Shown: positions 2,145 to 38,419 of the stretch, piece after piece
Position numbering within the stretch: the first letter of the stretch is position 1
Layout of the letters: each line of letters starts with the position of its first letter
The notes under the pieces: generated by a model
The model's input: the letters and a program-made list of their open reading frames with translations, nothing else
What the model was told of the DNA's origin: nothing
Databases searched by the model: none
Position numbers and translations under genes: made by a program
Assembly: GCA_002709405.1 (NCBI GenBank)
Contig: PAQV01000011.1
Span: 1,936-65,935, forward strand
DNA from: Paracoccaceae bacterium
GTDB lineage: Bacteria > Pseudomonadota > Alphaproteobacteria > Rhodobacterales > Rhodobacteraceae
DNA: 64,000 nt
Direction: 5' to 3'

Positions 2145-2159
2145 GTGGATCCTCCGGGG

Positions 2160-2507: not shown

Positions 2508-2561
2508 GGGCTGTCCCCTTTCATGCAGGATGTTGGCCGCGCCCATCGGGCGCGGATCCGG

Positions 2562-3905
2562 TTACTCGATCTCGTTCTTGTAGACGTGCCCGGCCTTCAC
2601 GATCAGGTCCAGCCGCGCGTCGAAATCCCGCAGGATCGAGATGTCGTCGAGCGGATTGCCGTCGATCAGCAGCAGGTCGGCAAGGGCGCCTTCCTCGATC
2701 ACGCCCACCACGCCCGGATAAGGGCTGCGGTCGCCCGACATCTGCAGCAACTCGCCTGACAGCGATGTCGCCTGGGCCAGGATCTCGGCCGGGGTGAACC
2801 AGCGGGTGCGCTCGACGAATTCGCGGTTCTGATCGGCGCAGGCCTCGGGGTTCACCACCACATCCGTGCCGAAGGCGATCTTGACCCCGTATTGCTTGGC
2901 CAGCCGGAACATCTGGTCGAGCCCTTCCTCGACCATCTTGCCCTTGGCCAGCCGCACGGGCCCCAGGTCCGGCGAGAACGTCAGGTAAACCACGACCTGC
3001 GGGCTCAGCCACACGCCGTTGTCGGCCATCATCTGCGCGATCTCCTCGTCGATGAGATTGCCGTGCTCGATGGACTTCACCCCGTTCTCGATTGCCTGCC
3101 GGATCCCGTCGACGGTGTAGACATGCGCGGTGACATAGGTGCCGAACCCCTCGGCCACCTCGACCGCGGCGCGGATCTCGTCGGCGGTGAACTGGCGGCC
3201 GTCGATCGGGTCGAACTCGGTCCCCACACCGCCGGCAAGGTGCATCTTGATCTGGCTCGCCCCGCGCTTGAGCTGTTCGCGGACCGCCGTCAGAACCTCT
3301 GCCCGGCCGTTGACGATGCGGCTGTAGCCCAGCCGTTCGAGGTTGTTTTCGGGCCCTCCGAATTCGCGCGGGTTCATGAACCGGGGATTGGCATCGCCAT
3401 GTCCGCCGAATTGCGAAATTGCCCGGAGCGAGGGCCAGACCCGCGGCCCGGCGATCTCTCCGCGGTCGGCGGCGAGCTTGGCGCCCCAGGAGGCGCCGCC
3501 GACATCGCGCAGGCTGGTGAAGCCGCGCATCAGGGCCTCTTCGGCGGCGATCCCGGCCTTGATCCCGATGTAATCGAGATCCGGCGCGTTGGACCCGGCC
3601 ATGTCCATGACCGGCACGTTGCAGAGGCTCAGGTGGTAATGCACGTCGATGAAGCCGGGCGTCATCACCCGGCCGCCCGCGTCGATGATCACCGTGCCGT
3701 CAGGGGCGGACAGCTCCGCGCCCATGGCCGCGATCAGGCCATCCTGCACCAGCACATCCTGCCCCTCGATCAGATCGGGGCCGACCCCGTCGAAGATCCG
3801 CGCGCCGGTGATGAGCAGGGGCGGCTCGGCATCAACCTGGGCAAGGCCGGGACCCGCGACGGCGAGCAGGGCAAGGCCCGCCACGAACCGGAAACGTTTA
3901 AGCAT
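2562..3905 (-). CDS. Exported amidohydrolase-superfamily metallohydrolase (paralog C)
   Basis: 447 aa with a Sec-type leader (MLKRFRFVAGLALLAVAGPGLAQV). Has the PGFIDVHYH metal-binding HxH motif. Alignable to the ORFs at 9637-10995 and 11098-12426. Confidence 0.85.
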   Translation of the reverse strand: MLKRFRFVAGLALLAVAGPGLAQVDAEPPLLITGARIFDGVGPDLIEGQDVLVQDGLIAAMGAELSAPDGTVIIDAGGRVMTPGFIDVHYHLSLCNVPVMDMAGSNAPDLDYIGIKAGIAAEEALMRGFTSLRDVGGASWGAKLAADRGEIAGPRVWPSLRAISQFGGHGDANPRFMNPREFGGPENNLERLGYSRIVNGRAEVLTAVREQLKRGASQIKMHLAGGVGTEFDPIDGRQFTADEIRAAVEVAEGFGTYVTAHVYTVDGIRQAIENGVKSIEHGNLIDEEIAQMMADNGVWLSPQVVVYLTFSPDLGPVRLAKGKMVEEGLDQMFRLAKQYGVKIAFGTDVVVNPEACADQNREFVERTRWFTPAEILAQATSLSGELLQMSGDRSPYPGVVGVIEEGALADLLLIDGNPLDDISILRDFDARLDLIVKAGHVYKNEIE

Positions 3906-3949
3906 GACAGTACCTCACTGCGTTGATCGAAGTGGCCGCTCCCGGCGCA

Positions 3950-4831
3950 TCACTTCTTCACCTTCGACTGGATGCCCACCTTGAGCCCCGGGCGCAAAAG
4001 CAGGTCCGGGTTGGGAAATTCCACCCAGACGGTGATCTTTTGGCTGTCTTCCTCGAACTTGTAACCGCCCGAGACGGCCTTGCCCTCGTAGGGATAGACC
4101 TCTCCGTTGGGCAGGATGATCGACAGCGCCAGCCCCTCGATCAGGTCTTCGTCGGTCGGGAACATCTTCTGCCGGGCGGCATAGATGTCATAGGGCACCT
4201 CGCCCACGACCTGGATCGGGTCCAGCTGGGTGATGATGGCCATGGTGATGTCACCGTCGCCCACGTCCTGCCAGCCGTTTTCACGGACCATCGGCGCGCT
4301 CATCATGCCGGCAAAGGGCGCCTTCTGGGTCATCTGCATGACCCCGAGCCCGGCCAGCCCGACATTGGCCTCGGCCGCGGCAAGATTGGCGGAGGCGATG
4401 TCGCGCAGCGCGATGTTCTTCTCCAGCTCCACCTCCGAGACGACATCCCGGTCCTTGAGGATCTCGGCCCGCTTCACGTCCGCGATAGCCTCCTGCAATT
4501 GCGCCTGCGCGGCATCGCGCTGCGCCTCGGCCAGGTCCAGGCGGTACTGGGCGGGGGGCAGGGCGAACTGGAAGAGAACGTCGCCTTCCTCCACGATCTG
4601 ACCCGGCGCGAAGGCGATGTGCCGCAGCCAGCCGCTGACGATCGGCGTGATCTCGGCCTCGCGTGCCGGAACGACGGTACCTTCGAATTCGACCACGTCA
4701 TAGGCGCCGTCCTGAGCCGTGGCCGATGTTCCGGACAGGCCCATCAGCAGGCCGACAAGCGCCGCCGCGCAGACGGAGCCAAAGTGCTTCGGTCCCCGTG
4801 GAGGCCAAAGCTTTTCTCTTTCGAAGGTCAT
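3950..4831 (-). CDS. Membrane-fusion (HlyD/RND periplasmic adaptor) family protein, orphan
   Basis: 293 aa starting at MTFEREK. N-terminal anchor, lipoyl-like segment, coiled-coil (AQAQLQEAIADVKRAEILKDRD..LEKNIALRDIA) and beta-barrel-like tail. The upstream part of the 629-aa track ORF overlaps the dipeptidase gene and is rejected. Confidence 0.7.
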   Translation of the reverse strand: MTFEREKLWPPRGPKHFGSVCAAALVGLLMGLSGTSATAQDGAYDVVEFEGTVVPAREAEITPIVSGWLRHIAFAPGQIVEEGDVLFQFALPPAQYRLDLAEAQRDAAQAQLQEAIADVKRAEILKDRDVVSEVELEKNIALRDIASANLAAAEANVGLAGLGVMQMTQKAPFAGMMSAPMVRENGWQDVGDGDITMAIITQLDPIQVVGEVPYDIYAARQKMFPTDEDLIEGLALSIILPNGEVYPYEGKAVSGGYKFEEDSQKITVWVEFPNPDLLLRPGLKVGIQSKVKK

Positions 4832-4875
4832 GACATGTTTCTCCATTCTCATGGTCCCCGCCGTCCCGGCCCCGC

Positions 4876-6198
4876 TCAGGTCCAGATGTCCGACGCGACG
4901 CGGTAGAGGTTTCCGCCCAGGAACTTGCCGCAATCCGCGTCGGACCAGCCGTTCTCCAGCAGCGTGTCCACCAGCGCCGAGACGATCTGGTAGGGCGCCG
5001 GTGTCGGCACGCCCTTGGCCGACATCGCCCGCAGCACGCCGCCATCGGGAAACAGCAGATCCCCCAGCGGGCTCATCCCGGAAATCGCCGTCTGGGTGAT
5101 GTCGGGGATCCAGTCGGACCCGAAACCGACGTGGTCGATGCCCACCAGGTTCACCATGTGGTCGATATGGCGATAGAGGATCTCGGTCGTCACGATATCC
5201 GGGTTCGTGGGATCGACGAAGCCACCCACCATGTTGATCGAACAGACCCCGCCGCTTTCGCCGATGGCCTTCAGAAGACCGTCGGAATGGCTGCGCTGGT
5301 AGTCGCTGACCGCCTTGGCGACCGAATGCGACGAGATCACCGGCTGCTGGCTGCGCTCGATGGCGTCGAAGGCCGTGCGCTCGCCGGTATGGCTGACGTC
5401 GACGATCATGCCGTAGCGGTTGTAGGCGTCGATCAGAAGCTTGCCGATGCCCGTCAGCCGGCCGTTGTCTTCCTCGAAACAGCCGTCGCCCATGGTGTTG
5501 CGACCGTTGTAGGCCAGCAGGCAATAGCCATAGCCAAGCTGGCGCCAAAGCCCCACCATATCCGGGTTCCCGGCGAAGAGCGCAGTGCCCTGGTGGGTGA
5601 AGAAGATGCCCAGCTTGCCCTCGGCCACCGCCGTGTCGATATCGGCGGTGGTGCGCACCACCTTGTAGCTCTCGGGGCGCTCGTTGATCTTCTTGAGGTA
5701 GAAGTTCAGGGAATTGGCGATCCCGCCAAGGCTGGTATCCAGCGCGTCGGCAGATGGGCAGGCGGCGATCGCCTTGAACCCGGCGGCCTTCAGCTTGTCC
5801 ATCTCGTCGTGGAATTCGGGCGCTTCGGGAGTTGACCACTGGGTGGGCCAGATGCCCGAGAAGAGCGAGTCCATGGTCATGGAGTCCTGCACGACCTGCC
5901 GCGCATGGTCGGAGGCGGGGTATTCGTGCAGCCGCTGGGGGATCTGCGAAAAGTCCGGGCCAGTGGCGCAGATCGCTTCGGGGTCGGCCACATTGGCCAG
6001 CATGTCGCCAGCATGAGCCTCCCGCGCGCCCATGGCCAGGGTGGCCGCGGCCCCCGCAGCGGAGCCGGCGGCCGTGGCGAAGAATGTCCGGCGATCCATA
6101 CCGGCCGGCGCGTTCTCGTCACGATCCACGGAGGGTGCTGCGTCGGTCCCTGTGGCGGTCATCTCTTCCACGAGTTTCTCGAAATCGTCGGGCTTCAT
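4876..6198 (-). CDS. Membrane dipeptidase (peptidase M19) family protein with Tat-type leader
   Basis: Start at MKPDDF with GGGAGAG upstream. Twin-arginine motif MDRRTFFATAAG. M19-like motifs VDVSHTGE and GFGSDW. Confidence 0.8.
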   Translation of the reverse strand: MKPDDFEKLVEEMTATGTDAAPSVDRDENAPAGMDRRTFFATAAGSAAGAAATLAMGAREAHAGDMLANVADPEAICATGPDFSQIPQRLHEYPASDHARQVVQDSMTMDSLFSGIWPTQWSTPEAPEFHDEMDKLKAAGFKAIAACPSADALDTSLGGIANSLNFYLKKINERPESYKVVRTTADIDTAVAEGKLGIFFTHQGTALFAGNPDMVGLWRQLGYGYCLLAYNGRNTMGDGCFEEDNGRLTGIGKLLIDAYNRYGMIVDVSHTGERTAFDAIERSQQPVISSHSVAKAVSDYQRSHSDGLLKAIGESGGVCSINMVGGFVDPTNPDIVTTEILYRHIDHMVNLVGIDHVGFGSDWIPDITQTAISGMSPLGDLLFPDGGVLRAMSAKGVPTPAPYQIVSALVDTLLENGWSDADCGKFLGGNLYRVASDIWT

Positions 6199-6321
6199 CT
6201 GGGTCTCTCCCTTTGAACTGGGCTTGCGTCTGGTTAGGCCTCTTGCCGAAGTGTCTCGGCGCATCACCGGCCATGGGTGTCGTGATCGGGTGACGCGGAG
6301 GTCACCCGCATTGCGTCGGGG

Positions 6322-7684
6322 TTACTCTCCGTTCAGGTACTTCGCGGCCTGCCGCAGGAAGCCCTGGGCGCGGTCTTCGCCGTAGGGCGGGATGTAGCCG
6401 TTGGTCGAGAAGTAGACGCCCACGAAGTCCCGGGCCGGATCGACGTAGAGCCCCTGTCCGACATTGCCGTGCTTGTAGAGCGCGCCGTCCTCAAAGACCG
6501 CGTCCCATTGCAGCGAATTCGCCTTGGGCTCTTCGCCGAATTCATCCGTCAGCCCGGCGAATTTCGACCCGCGCCGGAAGGCCTCCGGATTGCCCGCGTT
6601 CTGCATCCGCTCAAGCACCGCGTCCGAGACGATGTCCTCATGTGCGGTGGCGGCCCAGCTGGGGGTGAAGATCAGGCCGAAGCGGCCGAAATCCTCGAGC
6701 GTGGTCGAGATCAGCCCGTGGGTCACCGCAGTCCCGTCCGGCATCAGGTGGAACATGATGTCCTCGCGCGCCGACCTTGCCCCAGACCCGCTCCTGGAAC
6801 AGGTCCGCCCAGGTCATGTCGTCGATATTCTCGGCCAGCAGCACGCTGACCTGCGTCACCGCCGAGGAATAGCGAAAGACCTCCCCGGGCGCTTCGCCGT
6901 CGATCTTCTCGGCGGTCTTCAGGATGTCGAGCCAGTTCTCGTTCTCCCCGGTCAGCGGGTTGGGCGAGCCGAACTCGGCCGAGAAGAAGCGAACGATGAT
7001 CGAGGACGGGTCGATGATGGCATCCAGCGTTTCCTCCAGCGCCAGCCCCGTCTCCATGTTGGCAGCATCGAGGACCGAGATGCCGTCCCAGTTCGTGCCC
7101 TTCAGCTCGGGCACGTAGTCGACCACGTCCTTCGACATGTCGAGTTTGCCGTCCTCTTCCAGCAGGGCAAGGATCAGCCCGACGGTCGCCTTGCCCGGCG
7201 ACATCCAGGCGTGGCGGTCCATCTGGCCCATCCCCGGGTATTGTTCATAGACGACCTTGCCCTTGTAGATCATCATCATGCCCTGCACCCGGTGGTTGGG
7301 ATGCACGATGTACTCAGACAGCGGCATCTCGTCCTCGGAGGTCGACCAGACCACCTCCGTGCCGATGCTGTCGTCGATGGCGCGGTCCAGCGGGATGTAC
7401 TCGGGATGCGGCGCGGCATAGGCCGTGGGCAGCATCTCGCTGAGGTTCTGGTTGTAATAAAGCGCGTGGTCCCCGCCCATCTGGTAGTGGAAGTTCTCGA
7501 AGGCGGCCCGTGCGTCCCGCGTGAACTGGAGCGACCAAGGCTCCTTGACGGCCTCGACCGGCAGCGTCGTCATGGCGCCGGGGACCGAGAGCTATTTCTC
7601 CAGCGGGTTGTCCTGCGCGAGGGCCGGCAGAGTCAGCGTTCCGAGGACCAGCGCGGAGGCGACAGGCAGCTTGATCATGGGCAT
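6322..7684 (-). pseudogene. Serine hydrolase (beta-lactamase/transpeptidase-like, SxxK) disrupted by an in-frame TAG and a frameshift
   Basis: Three track ORFs (7592-7834, 6638-7573, 6322-6756) tile one protein collinear with its paralogs at 12462 and 13864. The leader MPMIKLPVASALVLGTLTLPALAQDNPLEK ends in TAG (7592-7594), in frame with MTTLPVE. The frame shifts in a GCGCGCG run near 6765-6771. SxxK motif is SPGK. Confidence 0.85.
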
Positions 7685-7862
7685 CGTCGGTTTCCTTCGG
7701 TGGTGCATCCTGGGGATGCGTCTGCGAGGCTGGCCTGACCGGGGCACCGTTTGATAAAGCCCGGAGACACTTTTGTGCGATCGCCGTATCGAGTCGCACA
7801 CCCTCATTCCGATACGTGAGGCGGGCCCGGTCAACCGGAACCGCCCGTTTCAGGACGCGTTC

Positions 7863-9536
7863 TCAGTCGCAGCACCGGATGATGCGCTTGTCGTACTGCG
7901 GCTGCGTGCCGGGAACGCCACCGCCGAAATCCTGTGGCACGTTGTAGAATTTCTGCGTCCAGGCGCTGATCTCCAGCGGCTCCAGAAGGCTGTCCTGCGG
8001 GTCGAACCGGATCGGCTGACCCGGGTTGACGTCCTTTAGCACCTCGGACTCGTCCACGACCACCGTGCCGTTCACGATGACGAAGGGGATGCCGGTCGAG
8101 GGCAGCGTGCCCTGCGCATAGGTTGCGTTGTCGGTGACCGTCTCGGGGTTGAAGATCGTGATGTCGGCCACCATGCCTTCCTGCATCCGGCCGCGTTCCT
8201 GCATCGCCTTCAGCCCCATCTCGCTGAACGGACGGGCCGAATTCTAGCTGCTCTGGGCCACCGTCTGCATCAGTGGAATGCCGTTCTCGCGGCCCATCCG
8301 CAGGGCCTTCGCGAAGCTGCCGGCGCCGCGCGGGTGGCTGTTGGGCAGATCCTCGTAGGGCGTGTCCCAGGGAATATCCCCGAGAACCGGCACGGTATCC
8401 GACGCGATCGCCACATCCGGAAGTTTCAGCCAGTCGACGATGGCCTCGGGGGGCATCTTGTAGACGAGGACGAGGCGGGCGGGTTCCTTCGCAACCATCT
8501 CGGCCCGGCTTTCGGCGGTGTACCACTCCCCAGTCAGCACGTCCTGGATCGTGTCCTCGTAGCGATAGCCAAGCTGGTCGACCCAGACCTCCGGTTCCAG
8601 GAAGACGGCGTTCAGCGCGGTCGAGCCTGCGGCATAGGGATAAAGCTCGCCCCAGACGTTCATCCCGCGCCCGCGCATCCGGGTGAGAAGCTCATGCACG
8701 AGGTTGTAGCCGGGGTTGTTGAAGTGGCAGGCGATGGCGGGCGCGCCGAGGGCTGCGGCGTTGGCCAGCATCTCCTGGATGCCGTTCGACTCCGTCGTGT
8801 CGGTGCCCGGCGAGTAGCGGAAATGGAAGGCCGAGGAGCGGCCATAGTTTCCGGCCGTCTTCTGAAGCTCGAACACCTCGCGGGCGCTTGCCCCGTCACG
8901 CATGTAGCCCAGGGTCGAGCCCATTCCGACCGCGCCGGCGGCAAGCCCCTCGTCGACGACCCGCAGGATGTCATTGCCCTGCGCGAGGTCCGGTCGGGTC
9001 AGGGCCCAGCCGGTCTTCTCCGAGCCGCGGTGGTTCAGCGCCTCGGGCGCGTCCGGGGTGGTAATCCCGTCAAGGACAAGGGCCCGCGCGAATTCATGCG
9101 AGGAGGAGCAGCCGAAATTGATCTGGGTGGTCCCCTCGCGTTCAGCATACCATTCGGCCACCTTGGTGCCGAGCGTGCCCATCTCCAGATCCATCACCGT
9201 CGTCCGGCCGTCCCGCAGTGCCAGCTTGTGGCCCATGGGACGGACCCAGTGGAAATGGGTGTCGATGAAGCCCGGGGCGACCACGTGATCCGTGGCGTCG
9301 ATCTGGCGGGTGCCTTCCAGCGCGTCGGCGCTAATGGCGGTGATCCGGCCATCCTTCACGCCTACGTTCGCGACCTGGTCGAAGCCGGTTTCGGGGTCCA
9401 TCACCCGGCCATTCAGGATCACCAGGTCGAAGGGGGCCGAGGCTTGTGCCATGGCGCGTCCGGCCAGGCTTGCCGCGGCGACGGTGGCGGTTGCACCGAC
9501 GTTGAACTCGCGGCGGGAAATCGGGGTGTCAGTCAT
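7863..9536 (-). pseudogene. D-aminoacylase / N-acyl-D-amino-acid deacylase-type amidohydrolase with an in-frame TAG
   Basis: ORFs 8244-9536 and 7863-8219 are in the same frame (9536-8219 = 1317 = 3x439), separated by TAG at 8244-8246 (..TVAQSS*NSARPFSEMGLK..). Tat leader SRREFNVGAT. PGFIDTHFH motif. Confidence 0.85.
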
Positions 9537-9636
9537 TGGCTTGGTCTCCGGATGTCAGATGATACCCCGGTGCGATGGCACCGGGCGCGCGACGGAATGT
9601 TCGACGGGACGTTCGACGAGGCATGCGACGCATCGC

Positions 9637-10995
9637 TCAGCCCTGCAGCGTGTTCTTGTAGGTCACGCCCCCCTTCATGATCATCGCGAAGTTCGCGTCC
9701 GAATCCGCGACGAGGTTGATGGCTTCCAGCGGGTTGCCATTCACCAGCAGCAGGTCGGCATGGCCGCCCTCGGCCACCACGCTGATGGTGGCCTTGGCAT
9801 AGGGGTCGAGCGGCCCGCAGGCCTGGCACAGCTCGCCCGCCAGCGAGGTGGCCTGCGCCAGCGCCTCGTGGTTGGGGAACCAGCGTCCGAGCTTGGCCAG
9901 CTGCTTGCCCTGTTTCTTAGCCAGCTCGGGGTCGAACAGGGTATCTGTCCCCCAGACCATCTTCACGCCGAGCTCGCGCGCCGTCGTGTAGACGCTTTCC
10001 GTGCCCTCGGTCACCTGAAGGAACTTGCGCTGGTTCTCGGACCCCTCGGGGAAGGGAATGGCATCCTCGTCGTTGAGGATCGCCTGCATCGACAGCCAGG
10101 CCCCCTTGTCCTTCACCATCTGCAACCCGTCGCCGCTCAGCAAATGGCCATGCTCGACGCAGAGCACACCGGCCTCGACCGCCTGCAGGGCCGCCGCCTC
10201 GCCGATGGCATGGACCGTCACGTAGGTGTTTCAGTTCGCGGCGACATCGACGATCGCCTTCATTTCCTCGAAGGTGAACTGCACGACGTCGAGCGGATCG
10301 TTGTTCGAGCTGACGCCACCGCCCGCCATGGCCTTGATCTGCGTCGACCCCATGCGAAGGATTTCCCGCGACCGCTGCATCACCTCGGGCACGCCGTCGG
10401 CCAGCAGGGACATCCCGATGCGCGCGAAAAAGTCGAACTTCTCGCCGGGCCCCGCCGGGACCGCGACAGGCGGGCGGAAGTCTCCGTGGCCGCCGGTCTG
10501 ACCGACATAGGGGCCGCTGGGATAGATGCGCGGCCCGATGATGCGCCCCTCCCGCGTGGCGCGAACCAGCGGGAAGACATTGCCGCCGACATCGCGCACG
10601 GTGGTGAAGCCACGCATGAGCGCATCGCGATTGGTCTCGGCAGCCACCAGCGTGATGTAGGACGGATCGGAATTCAGGACGGTTTCGATCGTGCTCGTCG
10701 CCATCAGGGCATGCCAGTGCATGTCGATCAGGCCCGGCATCAGCGTGCGCCCGTCCGCATCAATCACCTGCGCCCCGTCGGTGGACAGGTTTGCGCCGAT
10801 GCGGGTGACAAGGCCATCCTCGATCAGCACGTCCATCCCGGCCATCAGCTCGGCCGAGGATCCGTCGAAGATGTTGCTGCCCCGGATCAGGATGGGCGTG
10901 GCCCCCTGCGCATAGGCGCCTGCGGGCAGCAGAAGCGACGAAAGGGCGCCGGCCGCCGTTCCCGCCAGGAAGCTGCGTCGGTTGATGTAGGCCAT
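9637..10995 (-). pseudogene. Exported amidohydrolase (paralog A) with an in-frame TGA
   Basis: ORFs 10231-10995 and 9637-10221 share a frame (774 = 3x258). The TGA at 10231-10233 (..IVDVAAN*NTYVTVHAIG..) aligns with Y/F in the intact paralogs (ADTYNTYV, EGFGTYV). Tat leader NRRSFLAG. PGLIDMHWH motif. Confidence 0.85.
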
Positions 10996-11097
10996 GGGCC
11001 AAGTCTACTCGTTAACTGACGTAGGTCTGTCCCGCGAAGCCCCATTGCAGTCCGAGCAAACACGGGAGTGAGGGATTGCGGGACCTATCGCCCGCAC

Positions 11098-12426: not shown

Positions 12427-12461
12427 GGGTCTGGTCTCCGGTTTACTCATCATGGTTTGGC

Positions 12462-13757: not shown

Positions 13758-13863
13758 GGGCTTCCCTCCCGGTTCGGCTGCTTTCGGAGCGCCTGCACAA
13801 GATGCCGCGCGCTGCCGAATGCCCCCTCCTGAGTCGAGCGTAGCCCGGAAGGGGTGCCAAGTC

Positions 13864-15168
13864 TCACTCGTCGAACAGCCCTGACGTCGCGATCTTGCGG
13901 GCAAAGCGGTGGCCCGAATGATCGTCGTTGTTCACGTTGAAATAGACGATGACGAGATCCCGGGAGGGCGAAACATAGAGGCCCTGCGTCATCAGCCCGC
14001 CCTTCCACATGTCGCCGTCCGGCCATACGACGTCCCACTGACGGCTGTTGGCGATGAAGTCGTCCGAACCAAGGAAATCGACGAAAACGGCGCCGTCAAA
14101 GCCGGCCATGACAAACTCGTGTGACCGCACCTCGCTGCGAATGCGCGCGAGGATCTCGTCCGAGACGACCTGTTCGGTCGCGATCTTGTCCCAGCTGGGC
14201 GTGTAGAGCATGCCGAAGCGGGCGAAATCGCGCAGGTTGCTCGACACCAGCCCGTGTGCCGCCACGATGCCATCGGGCGTCAGGTGCAGTTGCAGCGCGC
14301 CCTCGGCGCCGACCTTGGACCAGACGCGGCGATCGAAGATCTGGTGCCAGCGATCTCCCTCCACGTCTTCGGCCAGGAACACCAGCATCTGCGTCAGGCC
14401 GGAGGCATAATGGAACGCCTGGCCGGGCTCTTCGCGCTTGGGCGTGCTTCTGAGCACCTCGCGGAGTGTCTCGACACCCCGTGTCTCGTTCGGAAATCCG
14501 AACTCGGATTCATAGACCCGCCGCGCGATGTTGTCCGGGTCGAACCGGGACTCTTTGGTGTCTTCGAGGTCCATGCCGGTGGCCATGTCCATCACGTCCT
14601 TCACCGTTACACCGTCCCAGGGGGTGCCCTGGAAATCGGTCATGTAGGTGGTGATCGGCGCATTCTCGTCGATCTTGCCCTCGCTGATCAGCTGGTCGAT
14701 CACAAGGCTGGCCGTGGGCTTTGCGGCGGACATCCACAGGTGGGAATCCTCGGGCCGCAGCCTCGGGTATTTCTCGTAGACGATCTCGCCCTTGTGGACG
14801 ACCATGTAGGCCTGCGCGAAATCGGATTGTTCAAGGAACGCGTCCAGGCTGAGCAGCCCTTCGAGACTGCTTTCGGATGTCAGCTCGACCTCGATCTGGC
14901 CTATCTCGGGCATGGGGTTGCTGGCCAGCGGCATCACGCCCGGGCGCGAGGGCAGGATCGCCGTCGGCAGGAACTCGGACGCACGCACGTTAAAATAGGC
15001 GGACGGGTCGCCGCCGCGGAACAGCTCGTTGTAATCCGCGTTCCGCGTCTCGATTTCCAGCTCCATCGGGAAGCCGTCGACGAAGGCGTCCAGTGGCGTG
15101 CGGTCCTGCGCGCCGGCCATTGAAGCCGCCAGAAGCGCCAGGGAGGTCGTCAATATCATGCGTCGCAT
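13864..15168 (-). CDS. Exported serine hydrolase (beta-lactamase-like, SxxK)
   Basis: Start at MRRMILTTSLALLAASMAGAQ (residue 48 of the track ORF). MSAAKP SxxK motif. Tandem paralog of the preceding gene. Confidence 0.85.
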   Translation of the reverse strand: MRRMILTTSLALLAASMAGAQDRTPLDAFVDGFPMELEIETRNADYNELFRGGDPSAYFNVRASEFLPTAILPSRPGVMPLASNPMPEIGQIEVELTSESSLEGLLSLDAFLEQSDFAQAYMVVHKGEIVYEKYPRLRPEDSHLWMSAAKPTASLVIDQLISEGKIDENAPITTYMTDFQGTPWDGVTVKDVMDMATGMDLEDTKESRFDPDNIARRVYESEFGFPNETRGVETLREVLRSTPKREEPGQAFHYASGLTQMLVFLAEDVEGDRWHQIFDRRVWSKVGAEGALQLHLTPDGIVAAHGLVSSNLRDFARFGMLYTPSWDKIATEQVVSDEILARIRSEVRSHEFVMAGFDGAVFVDFLGSDDFIANSRQWDVVWPDGDMWKGGLMTQGLYVSPSRDLVIVYFNVNNDDHSGHRFARKIATSGLFDE

Positions 15169-15271
15169 GGGTCTGGTTTCCTGAGTTATCCTATGTGGAC
15201 TTGCAGTTGGCGCCGGCCGCCATGATCGGAGCGAGCGCCGGGGAGTATGAACGTGCGGACCGGGCCCGCGA

Positions 15272-16027
15272 TTACCGGGCTTTCCAGTTCGGAGCCCGCT
15301 TTTCGGCAAACGCCAGGGCGCCTTCCTTGGAATCCTCGGTCCGCATCAGGAACTCGAAGCTTTCCTTTTCCAGCCGGACCGCCTGTTCCAGCGGCATGCC
15401 GAGGCCCTGCATGACCGTGGTCTTCATCTTCTGGACAGCCAGCGGGGCGCTTTTCACGATTTCGCCGGCGATCTGGCGGGCCTTGTCCAGCAGGTCCTCC
15501 TGCGACACCACGTGATTGACGAGGCCCAGCCGATAGGCATCCTCAGCGCCGATCCGGCCGCCGGTATAGAGCAGCTCGAGCGCCGCCCCCAACGGGATCA
15601 CGCGGGGCAATCGCTGGGTCCCATGGCCACCGGGGATCCAGCCCAGCCGGATTTCCCCCGATCCGAACTTGGCATCTTCCGTGCAGATCCGGATATCGGC
15701 ACCAAGCGCCTGCTCCAGCCCGCCGCCGTTGCAATGGCCCTGGATTGCCGCGATCACCGGCTTGGTCAGGGACAGCAGCCGCGGATAGAGGCGATCGACG
15801 AACCCTTCCGCGTCAGGCGTCTTGACCCAACCGATATCGGTGCCCGTGCAAAACGCCTTCCCTTCGCCGCTCAGGATGCCCACCCGCAGCTCGGGATCGT
15901 TTTCCAGCGCGTCCCAGGCATCCGCGATGGCGTTGTAGGTCTCACCATCACAGGCATTGTAGACCTCGGGGCGGTTGATCCGCACGTGCAGGATGCCCCC
16001 CGATTTCTCGACGATCACCTTGTCCAT
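15272..16027 (-). CDS. Enoyl-CoA hydratase/isomerase (crotonase) family protein
   Basis: 251 aa with the typical crotonase fold signature (GEGKAFCTGTDI..; CNGGGLEQALGADIRI). Confidence 0.9.
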   Translation of the reverse strand: MDKVIVEKSGGILHVRINRPEVYNACDGETYNAIADAWDALENDPELRVGILSGEGKAFCTGTDIGWVKTPDAEGFVDRLYPRLLSLTKPVIAAIQGHCNGGGLEQALGADIRICTEDAKFGSGEIRLGWIPGGHGTQRLPRVIPLGAALELLYTGGRIGAEDAYRLGLVNHVVSQEDLLDKARQIAGEIVKSAPLAVQKMKTTVMQGLGMPLEQAVRLEKESFEFLMRTEDSKEGALAFAEKRAPNWKAR

Positions 16028-16102
16028 GTCTCTTCCCTTCGCACTCGTTGTCGTGAGAGAGGACGCCGGTTCAACAGGCTGTCCGCGTCCCCCATCGCGG
16101 TC

Positions 16103-16879
16103 TTAGTATTTTGTGTAGTTCGGCTTCCGCTTCTCGGCGAAAGCCGCCATGCCTTCCCTCTGGTCGGCCGTGCCGAACAGGCCGTGGAACAGCCGCCGCT
16201 CCAGCTTCAGCCCCGGCGCCAGGAGCGTTTCCGCCTGCTGGTTGACCGATTCCTTGCCCGCCAGAACGGCCAGGCGGGGATTGCCCGCGATGACCGATCC
16301 GATCCGCAGCGCCTCCTCCAGATGCATGCCATCGGGGACGACCCTGGTGATGATCCCCATGCGTTCGGCCTCTTCGGCGCTGATCGTGTCGCCGGTGAGG
16401 ATAAAGTACATCGCCTTCGCCTTGCCGATTGCGCGGGTCAGGCGCGCCGGGCCGCCAGCGCCGGGGATCACGCCCAGCGTGACCTCGGGCAGGCCGAAGC
16501 GGGCCGTCGTGTCGGCCACGATCATGTCGCACATCAGGGAAATCTCGGTGCCGCCGCCGAAGGCGAAGCCGCGCACCGCGGCGATGACGGGTTTGCGCAG
16601 CTCGGCGACCTTGTCCATGTAGGCCCCCAGGTCGGTGCGATAGGCGCTCTCGAAATCCTGGCTCGCGATCCATTTCAGGTCGGCACCGGCACAGAACGCC
16701 TTGTCTCCACCGGCAAGGATCATGCATCCGATGCTGTCGTCCGCGTCGAAGGCAGCCAGCGCATCGGTGACCTCCATCGCCACCTGTTCGTTCAGCGCAT
16801 TCAGCGCCTCGGGTCGGTCGAACGTCACGATGCCGAGGTTGCCCCGGCGCTCGGTCTTCATGAATTCGTAATCGGCCAT
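16103..16879 (-). CDS. Enoyl-CoA hydratase (crotonase family)
   Basis: 258 aa. Motifs GGDKAFCAGADLK and GFAFGGGTEISLMCDMIVA are classic crotonase motifs. Confidence 0.9.
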   Translation of the reverse strand: MADYEFMKTERRGNLGIVTFDRPEALNALNEQVAMEVTDALAAFDADDSIGCMILAGGDKAFCAGADLKWIASQDFESAYRTDLGAYMDKVAELRKPVIAAVRGFAFGGGTEISLMCDMIVADTTARFGLPEVTLGVIPGAGGPARLTRAIGKAKAMYFILTGDTISAEEAERMGIITRVVPDGMHLEEALRIGSVIAGNPRLAVLAGKESVNQQAETLLAPGLKLERRLFHGLFGTADQREGMAAFAEKRKPNYTKY

Positions 16880-16880
16880 T

Positions 16881-17144
16881 TCAGTATTTCCCTTTCCGCC
16901 GGTGTCGCCAGCCCAACAGACCGCCCACCAGGCAGCCCAGAACGAAGGCCCCGGGCATTTTCAGCCAGATGGCGCCGACCAGGATCTTCCCACCCGGATT
17001 GAAGAGCGCGAACACGGCCGCCAGCGCCGCCGCGTAAAGAAGAAGGAACATGCTCGCCCCGGCGTCGCGATTGGACTTGGGGTTCACCAGCAGGAAGGCC
17101 CCCGCGCCTGCCGGCAATCCGACCAGGACCGAAGCAAAGGTCAT
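16881..17144 (-). CDS. Small hydrophobic membrane protein (87 aa), hypothetical
   Basis: MTFASVLVGLPAGAGAFLLVN.. has three hydrophobic stretches. Its stop lies 1 nt from the ATG of the downstream crotonase, suggesting translational coupling. No family recognised. Confidence 0.4.
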   Translation of the reverse strand: MTFASVLVGLPAGAGAFLLVNPKSNRDAGASMFLLLYAAALAAVFALFNPGGKILVGAIWLKMPGAFVLGCLVGGLLGWRHRRKGKY

Positions 17145-17224
17145 GTTCAGCACGGCATCTCTCCCCCGGGTCTGTCGGTCGCAAGCTGGCCGTTTCGGCA
17201 GAGCGCTGTTCCGGAGCCGGACAT

Positions 17225-18817
17225 TCAATCGGCCTCGATCTTCGGCAAGCGGTCGCGCAGCTTGGCCTTGGCGACCCGGTCGAGGGTCGAACGGGGCAGG
17301 TCCTCTTCGATGAAGACCGCGCGGGGCACCTTGAAATCGGCCAGTTTCGCGCGGCAATGGGCGAGGACCTGTTCGGTCAGTTCCTCTGCCGTCAGGGCCC
17401 GCCCGGCATCGGTTCTCGTGACGAAGGCAACGGGGACATCGCCCAGCATGTCATGCTTCTGCGCGACCACGGCGCATTCCAGGATCAGTCCGGTGTCAAG
17501 GATCGCCGTCTCGATTTCCAGCGCGGCCACGTTCTCTCCGCCCACGCGCAGCATGTCCTTGTCGCGGTTGACGAAGAACAGCCAGCCGTCCTTGTCGATG
17601 CGGACGATATCCCCGGTGTCCAGCGCGCCGCTTGCGTCGAAGGCGTCCTCGGTCTTCTCGGGTTGCTGATAGTATTCCTTGAACAGCGACACGCCGCGTT
17701 CGCCCCGGATATAGAGCAGCCCTTCCTCTCCCGGTCCCGCCTGGCTTCCGTCGGGCTTGCGCACTTCGACATCGTAATGCGGCAGCGGCCGTCCCATCGT
17801 GCCCGCAGGTCCCGGGTGGTCTGCATCGGTCATGATGGCGGCGGTGCCGGTTTCGGTCATCCCCCAAAGCGCCATGGTCCGGGTGCGGAACTCGGCTTCG
17901 GCCTCGGGCAGACGGGCGAGCCCGATCAGGGTATGCACCTTGTGCTCGGGCACGGGCCGGCCGCTCAGCGCCTTGAAGGCGAAGGGGATCATCGACACCC
18001 ATGTCACGCCATGGGCGGCGCAGGTGTCCCAGAACCGCGAGGCCGAGAAGCTGGGATGAACCACGACCGTGTTGCCGGCCCAGAGCGCGGAAAAGAACGT
18101 CACCTGCGCATTGGCATGAAACAGCGGCAGATACAGCAGCGTGACGTCCTCGCGCCGCAGCCGCACGTTCATGGCAATCGTCTTGCCGCCCCAGAGCGCG
18201 TTCGCATTGGTCCAGACGGTGGGCTTGGGCCGCGAGGTCGTGCCGGAGGTGAACTGGACGGCGAAGTTCCGCATATGGTCAGGGGCCAGATCCGGCAGAG
18301 GCCTCTCCGAGGCGACCTCGGCAATCGGTATCGCGCCAAGCGCGTCCGCGTCGTAGTCGGTGGCGGGATCGCCGGTGACGATCATCGGCGTGTCGGAGCC
18401 GCAAGCCTCGCGCACCAGCGGCGCAAGCGAGGGCTGGGTGATCGCGACGGCGGGCTGCATCAGCTCGGCGAAATAGGCCACGTTCTCGGCCACGGACCGG
18501 GTATTGGTCGTCACGGGCACCGCGCCAAGGTAGGCGCAACCGAACCACGCGCCCAGGAATTCGGGTGCGTTGTCGTGGTGCATCAGGACGAAATCGCCTT
18601 CCTTCACGCCCCGTTCATGCAGGTCCGCAGCAAAGCGTTTCGCCTCGCGCGCCATCTCGGCATAGGTCCAGTGCCGCGCGGGCTGATCGAAGGGTGCCCA
18701 GGTCACGAAGGTCTTGTCCGGCTGGCGCGCGACCCATTGGTCAAGCAGCCAGGTCACGCTCATGCCCCGGAAGGCATCGCCCTTCGAAGGCGTCGTATGG
18801 GGAATTGATACGGTCAA
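17225..18817 (-). CDS. AMP-dependent acyl-CoA synthetase/ligase
   Basis: 530 aa with the AMP-binding motif QFTSGTTSRPKPT and the C-terminal ..FKVPR.. lysine region. Confidence 0.9.
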   Translation of the reverse strand: MTVSIPHTTPSKGDAFRGMSVTWLLDQWVARQPDKTFVTWAPFDQPARHWTYAEMAREAKRFAADLHERGVKEGDFVLMHHDNAPEFLGAWFGCAYLGAVPVTTNTRSVAENVAYFAELMQPAVAITQPSLAPLVREACGSDTPMIVTGDPATDYDADALGAIPIAEVASERPLPDLAPDHMRNFAVQFTSGTTSRPKPTVWTNANALWGGKTIAMNVRLRREDVTLLYLPLFHANAQVTFFSALWAGNTVVVHPSFSASRFWDTCAAHGVTWVSMIPFAFKALSGRPVPEHKVHTLIGLARLPEAEAEFRTRTMALWGMTETGTAAIMTDADHPGPAGTMGRPLPHYDVEVRKPDGSQAGPGEEGLLYIRGERGVSLFKEYYQQPEKTEDAFDASGALDTGDIVRIDKDGWLFFVNRDKDMLRVGGENVAALEIETAILDTGLILECAVVAQKHDMLGDVPVAFVTRTDAGRALTAEELTEQVLAHCRAKLADFKVPRAVFIEEDLPRSTLDRVAKAKLRDRLPKIEAD

Positions 18818-18844
18818 TTCATCGTCCTCGGCGTCCTTCTCCGC

Positions 18845-19296
18845 TCAGGCGGTCTTCTTCCTGACGTAAAGAAGGTGCTCGACGAAACAGACCGTCTCGC
18901 CACGCTGGTTGGTCGTCGTCTCGGTCTGGGTCAGCACACCATGGGTCGGCTGCTTGGCATCCGTCTTGGCGGCAACCTTGACCTCGGTCTTGATCGTGTC
19001 GCCGATGTAGACCAGCCCGGGGTAGCGGATCTTGCCATAGCCATAGTTCATCACGTTGGCGTTATGCCCTGCGACTGGAAGATCAGCCCGGTGCTGATGA
19101 CGAAGGTCAGGTTGCCATGGGCAATCCGTTCCTTGATCGGCTGCGATGCGGCGAATTCCGCGTCCGTGTGGTGGGGCATGAAATCGCCGGAATGCATGGC
19201 ATGCATCACGATGTCGGTCTCGGTGATGGTGCGGCCGGCGGTCACGTAGGTGTCGCCGATCTCGAAATCCTCGAAGAAATTGCTCTCGTCAGCCAT
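18845..19296 (-). pseudogene. MaoC-like (R)-hydratase/dehydratase split by a 1-nt frameshift
   Basis: An 81-aa ORF (19051-19296) and a 69-aa ORF (18845-19054) together make one roughly 150-aa hot-dog protein (..HGNLTFVISTGLIFQSQG / HNANVMNYGYGKIRYPG..). The frames differ (242 nt offset). The junction GGCAT fits loss of one C from GGC CAT near 19066. Confidence 0.75.
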
Positions 19297-19341
19297 TGTC
19301 GGTCCTCGGTTTGTCTGGGGGAAAAGCGGTGATCGGATGGC

Positions 19342-20556
19342 CTATCTCGGCAGGCCGACCGCCTTTGCCTCTGCCATCGCCTTGATGTCGTCCTCGCTGA
19401 AGCCCACGCCGGTCAGCGCGGCAACGGTATGCTCGCCGACCGCGGGCGGGGTCTGCGTCTTCACCTTCTCGTAGCCCTCGGCGTGGATCTGCATCGGGCT
19501 GTCCACGGTGCGGATGCCCTCCGCGCCCTCGACCTCGGGGAAGCAACCGTTGGCGATCATGTGCGGGTCGCGGGTGTTTTCCTCGGTCGTTTGCGCGACG
19601 CTGAAGTTCACGCCGAATGCCTGCAGCCGTTCCTTCACCACGTCGGGGTCATGCGTCCCGACGATGCCCTGCATCTCGTCGAACAGCGCCTTGGCGTTCT
19701 GCAGCCGGGATTGCGGCGTCGCGAACCGCTCGTCCCCCTTCAGGTGGTCCGCGCCAAAGGCGTCGCGGAGATTGCCGATGTTGTTCGGATTGATCTCCAT
19801 GATGATGACGTAACGGCCATCCTTGGTCCTGAAACGCCCGCCCGAGACCGGGTTCGGCCATTCATCCAGCGCGTATTTCGGCATCGGCGGCGTGCCCACC
19901 AGGGCCGCCTGTGTCATGCAGGAATTCGCCCACAAGCCATTGTGCATCAGCGAGGTAAACACCTCGGAGCCCTGGCCGGTCCGTTCGCGGTGGAACAGCC
20001 CCGCCAGAACCGCGCCCGCCAGGGTCGAGGCGGTCCCCAGGTCGCCCAACCCCACGGGCAGGGCCACCGGGCCGCCGTCCTTGGGCCGAAGCTCCTCCAT
20101 GATCCCGGTCCGGGCGTACCACGCGGTCGCATCGAACCCCGGCGCGTCCTTGTCCGGGCCGGCCTGGCCGAACCCGTTGATCGAGGCGTAGACGATCTTG
20201 GAGTTGACCGCCTTGATGTCTTCGTAGGTGTGTCTCAGGGCCTTCTGCACCGGCAGGGGCGAATTGGTCAGGAAGACATCGGCCGTCGCTGCCAGCTTCA
20301 GCAGCGCCTCCTGCGCCTCGGGCGCCTTGAGGTTCAGCGCAACCGACTTCTTCGTGCGGTTCTGGATGTAGGTCGTCCACGCCACCTTGCTGGGCGGCAG
20401 ACCCGGGGTCATGTGCCCATAGCGCCAGGGATCGCCGCTCAGCGGCTCGACCTTGATCACCTCGGCCCCCAGGTCGGCCAGGATCACCGTTGCATTGGGC
20501 GCTGCGGCCATCGAGGCGACCTCGATCACCTTGATCCCATCAAGAATTCCCACCAT
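19342..20556 (-). CDS. Family III CoA-transferase (CaiB/BaiF type)
   Basis: 404 aa. N-terminus MVGILDGIKVIEVASMAAAPNATVILADLGAEVIKVEP is typical of the family. Confidence 0.9.
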   Translation of the reverse strand: MVGILDGIKVIEVASMAAAPNATVILADLGAEVIKVEPLSGDPWRYGHMTPGLPPSKVAWTTYIQNRTKKSVALNLKAPEAQEALLKLAATADVFLTNSPLPVQKALRHTYEDIKAVNSKIVYASINGFGQAGPDKDAPGFDATAWYARTGIMEELRPKDGGPVALPVGLGDLGTASTLAGAVLAGLFHRERTGQGSEVFTSLMHNGLWANSCMTQAALVGTPPMPKYALDEWPNPVSGGRFRTKDGRYVIIMEINPNNIGNLRDAFGADHLKGDERFATPQSRLQNAKALFDEMQGIVGTHDPDVVKERLQAFGVNFSVAQTTEENTRDPHMIANGCFPEVEGAEGIRTVDSPMQIHAEGYEKVKTQTPPAVGEHTVAALTGVGFSEDDIKAMAEAKAVGLPR

Positions 20557-20827
20557 CGTCGCCTATCCTTTGTCTGACCGATTGCACAAACGCCATGCGC
20601 GTCTTCCGCGAGAGGTGGTCGAGGAATTCATCCTGAAGTCGGTCGAAGATCTTCTGATATTCGTCGGCCCGTTCCGGCATGTCTCTCCACCGGGCCCGCG
20701 CGACATCGGCCATTTCCATCTCTTCGCAGATGGACCGGAAATCGGGATCGTCGCGATGCAGCCTCGTGATGCTCAACTCGAGGCCGGGAAATCGCGCAAT
20801 CAATGTATGAAGATACGTGCCCGCCAT
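20540..20827 (-). CDS. Hypothetical small helical protein, first gene of the cluster
   Basis: MAGTYLHTLIARFPGLELSITRLHRDDPDFRSICEEMEMADVARARWRDMPERADEYQKIFDRLQDEFLDHL.. Overlaps the CoA-transferase start by 17 nt. No family recognised. An alternative start at 20878 is possible. Confidence 0.4.
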   Translation of the reverse strand: MAGTYLHTLIARFPGLELSITRLHRDDPDFRSICEEMEMADVARARWRDMPERADEYQKIFDRLQDEFLDHLSRKTRMAFVQSVRQRIGDDGGNS

Positions 20828-20878
20828 GTGCCCCCTCTCGGCGATCAAGGCATGGCAGACCGCGTCACCGCAGGGCAC

Positions 20879-20896
20879 GTTGGAACATGTTTCAAC
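20879..20896. promoter_or_regulatory. Imperfect 18-bp palindrome in the divergent promoter region
   Basis: GTTGGAACATGTTTCAAC (16 of 18 positions self-complementary). Lies between the cluster's first gene and the divergent TPR regulator gene. Confidence 0.3.
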
Positions 20897-20984
20897 GTAG
20901 AGTCAGCGGCTGTTTCCAAAGTGTTAATGGCCGGAAATTTCGTGCTATGGTCGTAATAACCTTTTGATCGTCGCCGCGGTTCCA

Positions 20985-37316: not shown

Positions 37317-37321
37317 GGCCC

Positions 37322-38410: not shown

Positions 38411-38419
38411 GGTCGCGGT

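Follow-up and report, generated by a model that had tools for sequence, protein, structure and literature searches.

What does a run of sixteen genes that sets hydrolases with predicted export beside enzymes of coenzyme A (CoA) thioester chemistry do for the marine bacterium that carries it? The run lies at positions 2562-20878 of a stretch of 64,000 nt from a Paracoccaceae bacterium (assembly GCA_002709405.1, contig PAQV01000011.1, positions 1,936-65,935, forward strand), which we refer to as the window and by whose numbering positions are given. A preliminary description of this DNA had read the run as a single 18-kb cluster in which periplasmic hydrolysis is coupled to CoA-dependent processing of the released acid. 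We find that the cluster is the cargo of an island of about 23.7 kb, bearing an integrase and situated at a tRNA-Met gene, and that the system is decaying in this lineage. As judged by comparison with relatives, the cargo is best described as a composite of a mobile, pan-phylum module (module A, CoA enzymes with the serine hydrolase SxxK-c) and a Rhodobacterales module (module B, a battery of hydrolases). We lean, if only slightly, towards the view that these two catabolic modules couple periplasmic hydrolysis with acyl-CoA steps, the bearer of the island being a pelagic marine member of the Rhodobacteraceae.

Real genes were told apart from shadow open reading frames (ORFs) by third-position GC content, and the candidates were then translated; families were assigned by Pfam and NCBIfam profile scans, and the closest solved relatives by sequence comparison with the PDB. 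In agreement with the preliminary description, sixteen consecutive minus-strand ORFs follow one another with short gaps or overlaps (-17 to about 290 nt). Transcription runs from a 95-aa ORF through the CoA-transferase, MaoC, AMP-ligase, an 88-aa ORF, crotonase 2, crotonase 1 and SxxK-c to SxxK-b, the amidohydrolases AH3 and AH2, a D-aminoacylase-like gene, SxxK-a, an M19 dipeptidase, an RND-type adaptor and AH1, after which a K+-channel-like gene follows (Table 1). The families named earlier all hold up: Pfam recovers the M19 dipeptidase, the three SxxK hydrolases, the two crotonases, the AMP-ligase, MaoC and the family III CoA-transferase, the orphan membrane-fusion protein matches TIGR01730 (model positions 15-246 of 322), and the translations carry twin-arginine translocation (Tat) motifs (MDRRTFF, SRREF, NRRSFL) and, on other hydrolases, Sec-type leaders. 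The HxH amidohydrolases are also present by Pfam (106-110 bits for AH1 and AH3, with HxH metal motifs in the translations), but they number four including the D-aminoacylase type, not four plus one. The earlier description did not mention that two of the sixteen ORFs encode small proteins without a family match. The 95-aa ORF, for which neither Pfam nor NCBIfam gives a match, is kept at 53-84% identity in alphaproteobacterial versions only; the 88-aa ORF, with no match in Pfam, is 55% identical to its equivalent at locus L015, and a like-placed 92-aa ORF precedes the MarC gene in Roseibium (L055). A promoter and terminator scan of 2000-21500 gave counts at or near chance, with sites falling inside genes.

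Module A spans 13864-20878 together with the divergent TPR gene to 22766. The CoA-transferase served as query in a scan of a single genome for each species, which yielded 26 loci at 64-93% identity, from Rhodobacterales and Stappiaceae, Gammaproteobacteria (Microbulbifer, Ferrimonas, Shewanella, Vibrio pacinii, Agarivorans, Halioglobus), Bacteroidota (Maribellus, Draconibacterium, Persicobacter, Gaetbulibacter), Desulfobacteraceae, Sulfurovum and Opitutaceae. For the 21 loci with enough flank, every window protein was searched by tblastn and counted when it lay no more than 10 kb from the CoA-transferase. MaoC was found at all 21 loci, crotonase 2 at 19, the AMP-ligase and crotonase 1 at 16 each, and a NylB-like SxxK hydrolase likewise at 16 (at 11 of the 21 with at least 60% identity to SxxK-c); MarC-family proteins and COG1228 amidohydrolases each accompany the CoA-transferase in 10/21 cases, an OprB-like porin in 7/21, a D-aminoacylase-like gene in 4/21 and an M19 dipeptidase in 1/21. 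The set of CoA-transferase, MaoC, ligase, crotonase and SxxK-c is shared at 65-95% amino acid identity among Alpha- and Gammaproteobacteria, Bacteroidota, Desulfobacterota, Campylobacterota and Verrucomicrobiota. SxxK-c itself is 67-95% identical in its 11 loci and often stands between both crotonases (L016, L022, L054), and signal peptides are seen in 7 of 8 orthologues inspected. In Desulfopila, Roseibium and Ferrimonas, the annotated complete layout reads CoA-transferase, MaoC, MaoC, ligase, (small ORF), MarC, crotonase 2, SxxK-c, crotonase 1, (4HBT thioesterase), OprB-like porin, amidohydrolases; complete versions usually add to the genes seen here the MarC-family membrane protein, the porin and the second MaoC. 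In Maribellus and Opitutaceae, three or four tandem amidohydrolase copies lie beside the module. Amidohydrolase, SxxK hydrolase and CoA-transferase, whose joint occurrence the preliminary description had proposed to check, do co-occur in relatives, and since the module recurs across at least five phyla the linkage does not look fortuitous.

The module also varies. Halioglobus-type Gammaproteobacteria (L024, L028, L029, L031) carry a divergent minimal variant comprising an AraC regulator, a GntP permease, the CoA-transferase, crotonase 2, an ABM monooxygenase-like protein, an SxxK hydrolase of 43% identity and a TonB-dependent receptor. A second CoA-transferase occurs in L029 (59%) and L015 (56%), each time adjoining a conserved 384-aa protein without a Pfam match, which is also found in L024, L025 and L031. 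PLD-like lipoproteins with predicted export lie directly upstream of the CoA-transferase in two unrelated phyla, namely in Vibrio pacinii (L019, 6172-7626) and in a Sulfurovum metagenome-assembled genome (MAG; L022, 7992-9596), and the Vibrio pacinii locus also holds a 679-aa carboxylesterase there (4069-6108). As a clue to a lipid substrate these neighbours were set aside as too sparse, with the lipoprotein in only two loci and the carboxylesterase in one.

Module B (2160-13757) runs from SxxK-b through the K+ channel. In Alloyangia pacifica and a related metagenomic organism this run is intact and stands alone with AraC regulators, with no CoA module inside these 21-kb loci. The Alloyangia copy of SxxK-b (86% identity) heads the battery there, and identity is 87% for AH1, 81% for the adaptor, which holds the same position, and 88-93% for the D-aminoacylase-like protein, whose orthologue is an intact 557-aa protein; the M19 dipeptidase is 61-63% identical to the Alloyangia and Opitutaceae copies, and the K+-channel-like gene holds the same place in L007 and L008 (69-72%). 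Conversely, module A in Ferrimonas, Shewanella, Vibrio and Agarivorans lacks any amidohydrolase over a distance of 10 kb. The coupling of hydrolases and CoA enzymes put forward earlier is thus borne out as a conserved linkage, but not as one 18-kb unit, because either module can occur without the other. These separate occurrences also fit a fortuitous juxtaposition, in which module B would be a general battery of the periplasm that scavenges peptides, D-amino-acid peptides or N-acyl-amino acids for their nitrogen, module A would degrade an unrelated small acid, and the two would adjoin merely since accessory genes collect on islands: the battery in Alloyangia has regulators of its own, amidohydrolases are missing near module A in 11 of the 21 loci, and the M19 gene is near it in just one. 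Chance, however, is an unlikely explanation for the abutment of COG1228 or D-aminoacylase-like genes on the CoA module in Bacteroidota, Verrucomicrobiota, Desulfobacterota, Campylobacterota and Alphaproteobacteria; the enzyme types of module B are those that flank module A in other phyla, an exported SxxK hydrolase is embedded within the CoA gene run in most phyla, and Sedimentitalea (L012) has both modules in the order seen in the window. We regard the juxtaposition as unlikely to be fortuitous.

Both borders of the island can be placed. On one side lies the tRNA-Met gene, whose part from the anticodon loop to CCA, plus 7 nt, makes up a 53-nt repeat (Table 1). A distal copy (53 nt, 48/53 identical) is present in the TARA contigs L056-L058, about 530-580 nt ahead of window base 1 and about 23.6 kb from the tRNA; in the TARA contigs the integrase gene that runs off the window encodes 232 aa and ends 11 nt before this repeat, and past it an insertion sequence (IS) transposase (rve) follows in L056 and L057. 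Enclosed are the TPR gene, the 16 ORFs, the K+ channel, a DUF3299 gene, a 166-aa ORF and the integrase. The DUF3299 gene and the 166-aa ORF, which has no family match, occupy 829-2144 (plus strand) between K+ channel and integrase. Past the IS element L056 and L057 diverge completely, so the border varies between strains. Elsewhere the chromosomal setting differs: Maritimibacter alkaliphilus has an identical tRNA-Met directly before the TPR gene with a different gene on the tRNA's other side, Shewanella marisflavi has four tRNA-Gly genes 1.1 kb upstream of the CoA-transferase, and Ruegeria marisrubri has a tRNA-Arg and IS elements upstream of the cluster; no copy of the attachment repeat turned up in the 21-kb loci of Maritimibacter, Shewanella and Ruegeria. 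A plasmid origin was rejected, as the module is on only one plasmid, from Persicobacter.

Table 1. Features of the island and its tRNA border, in window coordinates
Feature	Positions	Strand	Basis or remark
tRNA-Met (CAT)	23059-23135	-	ARAGORN and Rfam; between TPR gene and hemE
Island attachment repeat, tRNA side	23052-23104	-	53 nt, tRNA anticodon loop to CCA plus 7 nt
TPR membrane protein, CadC/ToxR-like topology, putative regulator	20964-22766	+	Pfam TPR repeats
Small ORF, about 95 aa	20540-20830	-	Overlaps CoA-transferase start
Family III CoA-transferase, 404 aa, intact	19342-20556	-	Pfam CoA_transf_3, 282 bits
MaoC (R)-hydratase, pseudogene	18845-19296	-	Pfam MaoC_dehydratas on joined translation
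AMP-forming acyl-CoA ligase, intact, 512 aa per contig gene calls	17225-18817	-	Pfam AMP-binding
Small membrane ORF, 88 aa	16881-17147	-	Position: precedes MarC gene in complete clusters
Crotonase 2, canonical short-chain enoyl-CoA hydratase type, intact	16103-16879	-	Pfam ECH_1, 243 bits
Crotonase 1, intact	15272-16027	-	Pfam ECH_1, 208 bits
SxxK-c, NylB-like serine hydrolase with predicted export, intact	13864-15168	-	Pfam Beta-lactamase
SxxK-b, serine hydrolase with predicted export, intact, first gene of module B	12462-13757	-	Pfam
AH3, COG1228 amidohydrolase with predicted export, intact	11098-12444	-	Pfam Amidohydro_1
AH2, COG1228 amidohydrolase, pseudogene, Tat leader	9637-10995	-	Pfam; in-frame stop
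D-aminoacylase-like (Amidohydro_3), pseudogene, Tat leader	7863-9536	-	NCBIfam PRK09061, 269 bits
SxxK-a, serine hydrolase, pseudogene	6322-7684	-	Alignment to intact 454-aa orthologues in L007, L008
M19 membrane-type dipeptidase, Tat leader, intact	4876-6198	-	Pfam Peptidase_M19, 220 bits
Short orphan RND-type periplasmic adaptor (membrane-fusion protein)	3950-4870	-	TIGR01730, 107 bits (cut-off 94.9)
AH1, COG1228 amidohydrolase with predicted export, intact	2562-3905	-	Pfam
K+-channel-like protein, two transmembrane segments	2160-2546	-	Pfam Ion_trans_2; closes module B
Phage-type integrase, 5' end, runs off window	1-182	-	Distal island end; Phage_integrase in L056-L058

Four of the 14 enzyme genes are pseudogenes, with five lesions in total. 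Compared with four orthologues, MaoC lacks 1 nt at 19063/19064; AH2 has an in-frame TGA (10231-10233) and the D-aminoacylase-like gene an in-frame TAG (8244-8246), and SxxK-a is hit twice, by a premature stop directly past the signal peptide (7592-7594) and by a 2-nt deletion in a GC repeat (about 6771/6772). Exact-protein look-up found identical proteins on 17-19 metagenome contigs (17 in the case of AH1) from several TARA Oceans samples and different assembly pipelines. The same fragment sizes recur in these contigs, namely MaoC 81+68 aa (L001-L006), AH2 254+194 aa (L001, L003, L056-L059), the D-aminoacylase-like protein 430+118 aa and SxxK-a 30+311 aa (both L056-L059). Because separately assembled contigs share identical fragments, sequencing error is rejected and the lesions are a population-level trait. 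Programmed frameshifting in MaoC is not supported either, as the lesion is a plain 1-nt deletion with no slippery run. The ratio of nonsynonymous to synonymous substitution rates (dN/dS) against intact orthologues is 0.04-0.28 for the broken genes and 0.05-0.25 for their intact neighbours (0.07 for the CoA-transferase against Sedimentitalea), and this resemblance indicates that the inactivations are recent.

Losses of whole genes add to these lesions. The window copy has no MarC, second MaoC, OprB-like porin or 4HBT thioesterase of the complete versions, and between the ligase and crotonase 2, where complete clusters hold MarC, only the small ORF is left. The earlier remark that the cluster contains no importer is true here, but the absence reflects loss and not the design of the system, because complete versions carry the MarC-family protein and the OprB-like porin. 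With its only MaoC frameshifted and the transporter, porin and second MaoC missing, a working pathway in this organism is not supported, and the CoA branch as encoded here is probably not functional. The core genome encodes, at 34606-40336 (minus strand) and about 12 kb beyond the island, a peptide ABC transporter of the Opp/Dpp type (638-aa family-5 binding protein, two permeases, fused double ATPase), and a second transporter of this type lies just past the island's other end in L057; either could import the products of the hydrolases, though neither belongs to the island. In two other Rhodobacterales copies, L026 (5.5-kb contig of a MAG) and L052 (Tropicimonas sp. IMCC6043), we observed only fragments of module A; among them are a truncated CoA-transferase, crotonases and a TPR gene that are split, and 45 aa left of MarC. 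Those of the MAG may include assembly errors. Module A seems to have decayed repeatedly in Rhodobacterales. In open-ocean members of this group the island is being lost one gene at a time, in the present lineage and in no fewer than two others, which suggests a substrate that is coastal or bound to sediment or particles rather than pelagic.

What might the intact system do? The order of reactions that follows, and the substrate, we infer. In the preferred reading of two coupled catabolic modules, SxxK-c would cleave an ester or amide in the periplasm, and in complete versions the released carboxylic acid may enter through the OprB-like porin and the MarC-family membrane protein. By analogy with the carnitine system, the AMP-ligase (FadD/CaiC-like; best NCBIfam matches PRK06155, a long-chain-fatty-acid ligase model and CaiC, all under cut-off; top PDB match FadD13, 180 bits) would prime the pathway by making the acid's CoA thioester, and the family III CoA-transferase (best solved relatives SUGCT, 141 bits, and Rv3272, 134 bits) would then recycle CoA. 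The MaoC hydratases, (R)-specific enzymes, and the (S)-specific crotonases are predicted to follow. Since a redox enzyme is missing from every version (no oxidoreductase lies within the core gene run of any locus whose neighbours were looked at), the likeliest role of module A is hydration of an enoyl-CoA, or epimerisation of an (R)-3-hydroxyacyl-CoA by way of the enoyl-CoA to the (S)-form used in ordinary beta-oxidation. The known stereochemistry of the two hydratase families would permit such an epimerisation, and housekeeping beta-oxidation would complete the breakdown. The metallo-amidohydrolases of module B (aminoacylase/prolidase-like COG1228 enzymes, D-aminoacylase-like enzyme, M19 dipeptidase) and its two serine hydrolases could remove the amino-acid or peptide portion from the same substrates or from related ones. 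Our best guess for these is amide- or ester-linked 3-hydroxyacyl or enoyl compounds, with acyl-amino acids, aminolipid or depsipeptide fragments and hydroxyalkanoate oligomers as guessed examples. We further offer, tentatively and with the odds somewhat against it, the wider proposal that the CoA genes with the embedded NylB-like hydrolase, the recurrent aminoacylase-type amidohydrolases, the MarC-family protein and the OprB-like porin make up an undescribed, horizontally exchanged marine pathway. It would degrade some widespread compound of 3-hydroxyacyl, enoyl or beta-amino-acyl type with an amide or ester linkage, for which candidates include natural oligoamides besides bacterial aminolipid or depsipeptide fragments and hydroxyalkanoate oligomers.

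Several points weigh against the coupled reading and its substrates, beginning with the solitary battery of Alloyangia and the amidohydrolase-free versions of module A described above. The genome scan relied on peptide patterns of one protein, so that the co-occurrence counts come from close relatives only. Base composition does not mark the island, with GC of 0.63-0.66 over 1-23 kb and 0.63-0.72 elsewhere in a window that is GC-rich throughout (0.63-0.72). Every enzyme falls under its NCBIfam equivalog cut-off, which makes the substrate assignments guesses, and the clues to the substrate conflict: the OprB-type porin, the GntP permease of the Halioglobus-type variant and the short-chain-type crotonases point to small hydrophilic acids, whereas the FadD-like ligase and the PLD-like, carboxylesterase and fatty-acid cis/trans-isomerase neighbours in three loci point to lipids.

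The serine hydrolase of module A raises a more specific alternative, that of beta- or omega-amino-acid amides. Here NylB-like hydrolases and dipeptidases would free beta-alanine, gamma-aminobutyrate (GABA) or a related amino acid from oligoamides or dipeptides. After import by a MarC-family protein, the amino acid would be converted into its CoA thioester and lose its amino group in that form, and the resulting acryloyl- or crotonyl-CoA would be hydrated by the crotonases. The MarC family is grouped with small neutral amino-acid transporters (TCDB 2.A.95). The closest solved relative of SxxK-c is indeed NylB, the 6-aminohexanoate-dimer hydrolase (about 90 bits), and crotonase 1 is nearest to a 3-hydroxypropionyl-CoA dehydratase (5zai, 183 bits), with crotonase 2 scoring well against the acryloyl-CoA hydratase AcuH. 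The NylB residues Ser112-x-x-Lys115 and Tyr215 are kept in SxxK-c (HLWMSAAKP = HLLMSVSKS; FHYASG = FQYCSA). However, identity to NylB is only roughly 25%, and in place of NylB Tyr170 (EDYVDP), a residue that matters for amide (Ald) and not for ester hydrolysis, SxxK-c has Phe (SRFDP), as do 8/8 orthologues inspected. In addition, MaoC carries the ordinary hydratase motif (SGDxxPxH), the closest solved relative of the MaoC proteins is 4ffu, a deposit labelled only 'oxidase', and no aminotransferase or ammonia-lyase signature was found. Related marine beta-lactamase-fold enzymes do hydrolyse polyamide-4 to GABA oligomers (PMC13269358), in line with this route, which we nevertheless consider improbable.

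The pairing of CoA-transferase and crotonase 2, which are adjacent in L024, L025, L028, L029 and L031, among them the minimal Halioglobus-type variants, recalls detoxification linked to acrylate or dimethylsulfoniopropionate (DMSP). In such a unit, of the AcuN-AcuK type described for Halomonas (HTNK1) (PMC5651017), the two enzymes would turn acrylate into 3-hydroxypropionate and the hydrolases would be passengers. Crotonase 2, whose orthologues are 71-95% identical, does reach 238 bits against RdAcuH (5xzd), but it scores higher against the generic enoyl-CoA hydratases EchA8 (256 bits) and rat ECH (249 bits). No ddd, dmd or acuI genes lie nearby in the loci with annotated neighbours, and the conserved ligase, two MaoC genes and exported hydrolase would be left unexplained, so that we hold this alternative to be very unlikely.

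The gene diverging from module A was called a TPR membrane regulator in the preliminary description. TPR repeats, a transmembrane helix and CadC-like topology are indeed found, but the N-terminal domain gives no match that would bear out the word regulator. The AlphaFold2 model (predicted local distance difference test, pLDDT, 83) has a compact N-domain, a disordered linker, a transmembrane helix at residues 157-180 and a periplasmic alpha/beta and TPR domain, and the periplasmic part matches the CadC periplasmic domain (3ly7-3lya) by Foldseek with E of 5e-6 to 2e-5. The N-terminal ~120 aa (20985-21359, plus strand) are the most conserved part of this family, which has more than 500 members, the named ones mostly from Alphaproteobacteria, labelled in databases 'TolB-like/TPR' or, wrongly, 'adenylate cyclase'. 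Modelled alone (pLDDT 89, predicted template modelling score 0.81), the N-domain is predicted to fold into four helices plus a beta-hairpin; Pfam gives no match for it up to E = 5, its best PDB structural neighbour has E = 3.3, and the OmpR-type winged-helix DNA-binding domain expected of ToxR/CadC regulators was found neither by Pfam nor by structure search. The gene is divergent beside the CoA module in L011, L012, L015, L030 and L055, and from the modelled topology and this conserved position a sensor-regulator would be a reasonable reading.

The wider significance lies with the conserved core; the copy analysed here is a recent casualty of gene loss. A gene set is shared at the identities given above among marine bacteria of at least five phyla with no assignable substrate, and this pattern of exchange together with the lack of a substrate points to a compound that is abundant in the sea and degraded by an undescribed route; if true, there is a class of marine organic matter currently without known catabolic genes. 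The core merits experiments in isolates that can be cultured and carry it intact, among them Maritimibacter, Sedimentitalea, Roseibium, Desulfopila, Shewanella marisflavi and Vibrio pacinii. Biocatalysis with polyamides and N-acyl-amino acids is a further reason for interest in the NylB-like and aminoacylase-type enzymes.

Two features lie elsewhere in the window. Cumulative GC skew falls steeply at about 22-36 kb, is flat to about 45 kb and then rises, with a polarity switch near 40-46 kb, close to the signal recognition particle (SRP) RNA gene (46475-46571) and dnaX (48740-50524); this could be a replication origin or terminus, or merely a change in gene orientation. A 520-aa ankyrin-repeat protein is encoded at 46894-48456 (minus strand), in the window's highest-GC stretch (0.70-0.72).

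How does the cluster compare with known systems? Its failure to match a named pathway, reported in the preliminary description, stands: no enzyme reaches an NCBIfam equivalog cut-off, only the generic TIGR01730 adaptor passing among the 16 proteins scanned, no characterised operon matched, and searches of the literature on NylB together with CoA enzymes, AcuN/AcuK, COG1228, beta-alanyl-CoA lyase, aminolipid catabolism and surfactin hydrolase turned up no account of this gene set. Models for Cai, itaconate (RipB/Ich), mesaconate, PaaZ/PaaF, DpgD, EchA19 and steroid CasG all score far under their cut-offs. The Cai, AcuN-AcuK, itaconate, mesaconate and steroid side-chain systems overlap with the cluster in some of their logic, but low scores or absent components set them apart. 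The carnitine pathway of Enterobacteria (CaiB, CaiC, CaiD) offers the same triad, in which an AMP-ligase primes, a family III CoA-transferase recycles CoA to new substrate and a crotonase hydrates or dehydrates the thioester; the window proteins reach 258 of 651 bits for CaiC, 180 of 500 for CaiD and 88 of 413 for CaiB. Unlike the Cai pathway, the window cluster adds MaoC hydratases and hydrolases with predicted export, and no CaiA-type acyl-CoA dehydrogenase or BCCT (CaiT) transporter is present in it or in the relatives examined. With the AcuN-AcuK route the cluster appears to share a CoA-transferase paired with a crotonase, the marine setting and some resemblance of crotonase 2 to AcuH, but it has no link to a DMSP lyase gene, and a ligase, MaoC and periplasmic hydrolases are added.

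The hydrolases, too, have partial counterparts. SxxK-c shares the fold of NylB, its best solved relative, from the nylon-oligomer system of Arthrobacter and Flavobacterium, but differs in its predicted export and in being linked with CoA enzymes, not with genes for NylA, NylC or an aminotransferase. AH1-AH3 belong with their HxH motifs and 98-236 bits to the COG1228 group (3mkv, 3feq, the arginine carboxypeptidase Cc2672 and ochratoxinase), whose members remove the C-terminal amino acid from N-acyl-amino acids or dipeptides. For AH3 the ranking is 3mkv (putative amidohydrolase, 236 bits) and 3feq (prolidase, 215 bits), then ochratoxinase and the arginine carboxypeptidase; the first two are Sargasso Sea entries, which we take to be the prolidases Sgx9260c and Sgx9260b. 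What sets the cluster apart from this group is the presence of multiple paralogues with predicted export, and their scores of 212-224 bits compare with a cut-off of 500 bits for the Caulobacter Xaa-Pro dipeptidase.

The TPR protein resembles ToxR/CadC-type one-component regulators in its single transmembrane helix and CadC-like periplasmic sensor, and departs from them in having no recognisable OmpR-type winged helix. As for the carrier, tRNA-associated integrative islands with catabolic cargo likewise pair a tRNA at one border with a tyrosine recombinase and a copy of the tRNA's 3' part at the opposite one, and have an IS element alongside and a chromosomal context that differs in relatives. 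Unlike in such islands, the integrase here is short and sits at the border away from the intact tRNA, and neither conjugation or mobilisation genes nor a GC anomaly were seen, which makes current mobility doubtful. Set beside all of these systems, the cluster is an undescribed combination of known enzyme families.

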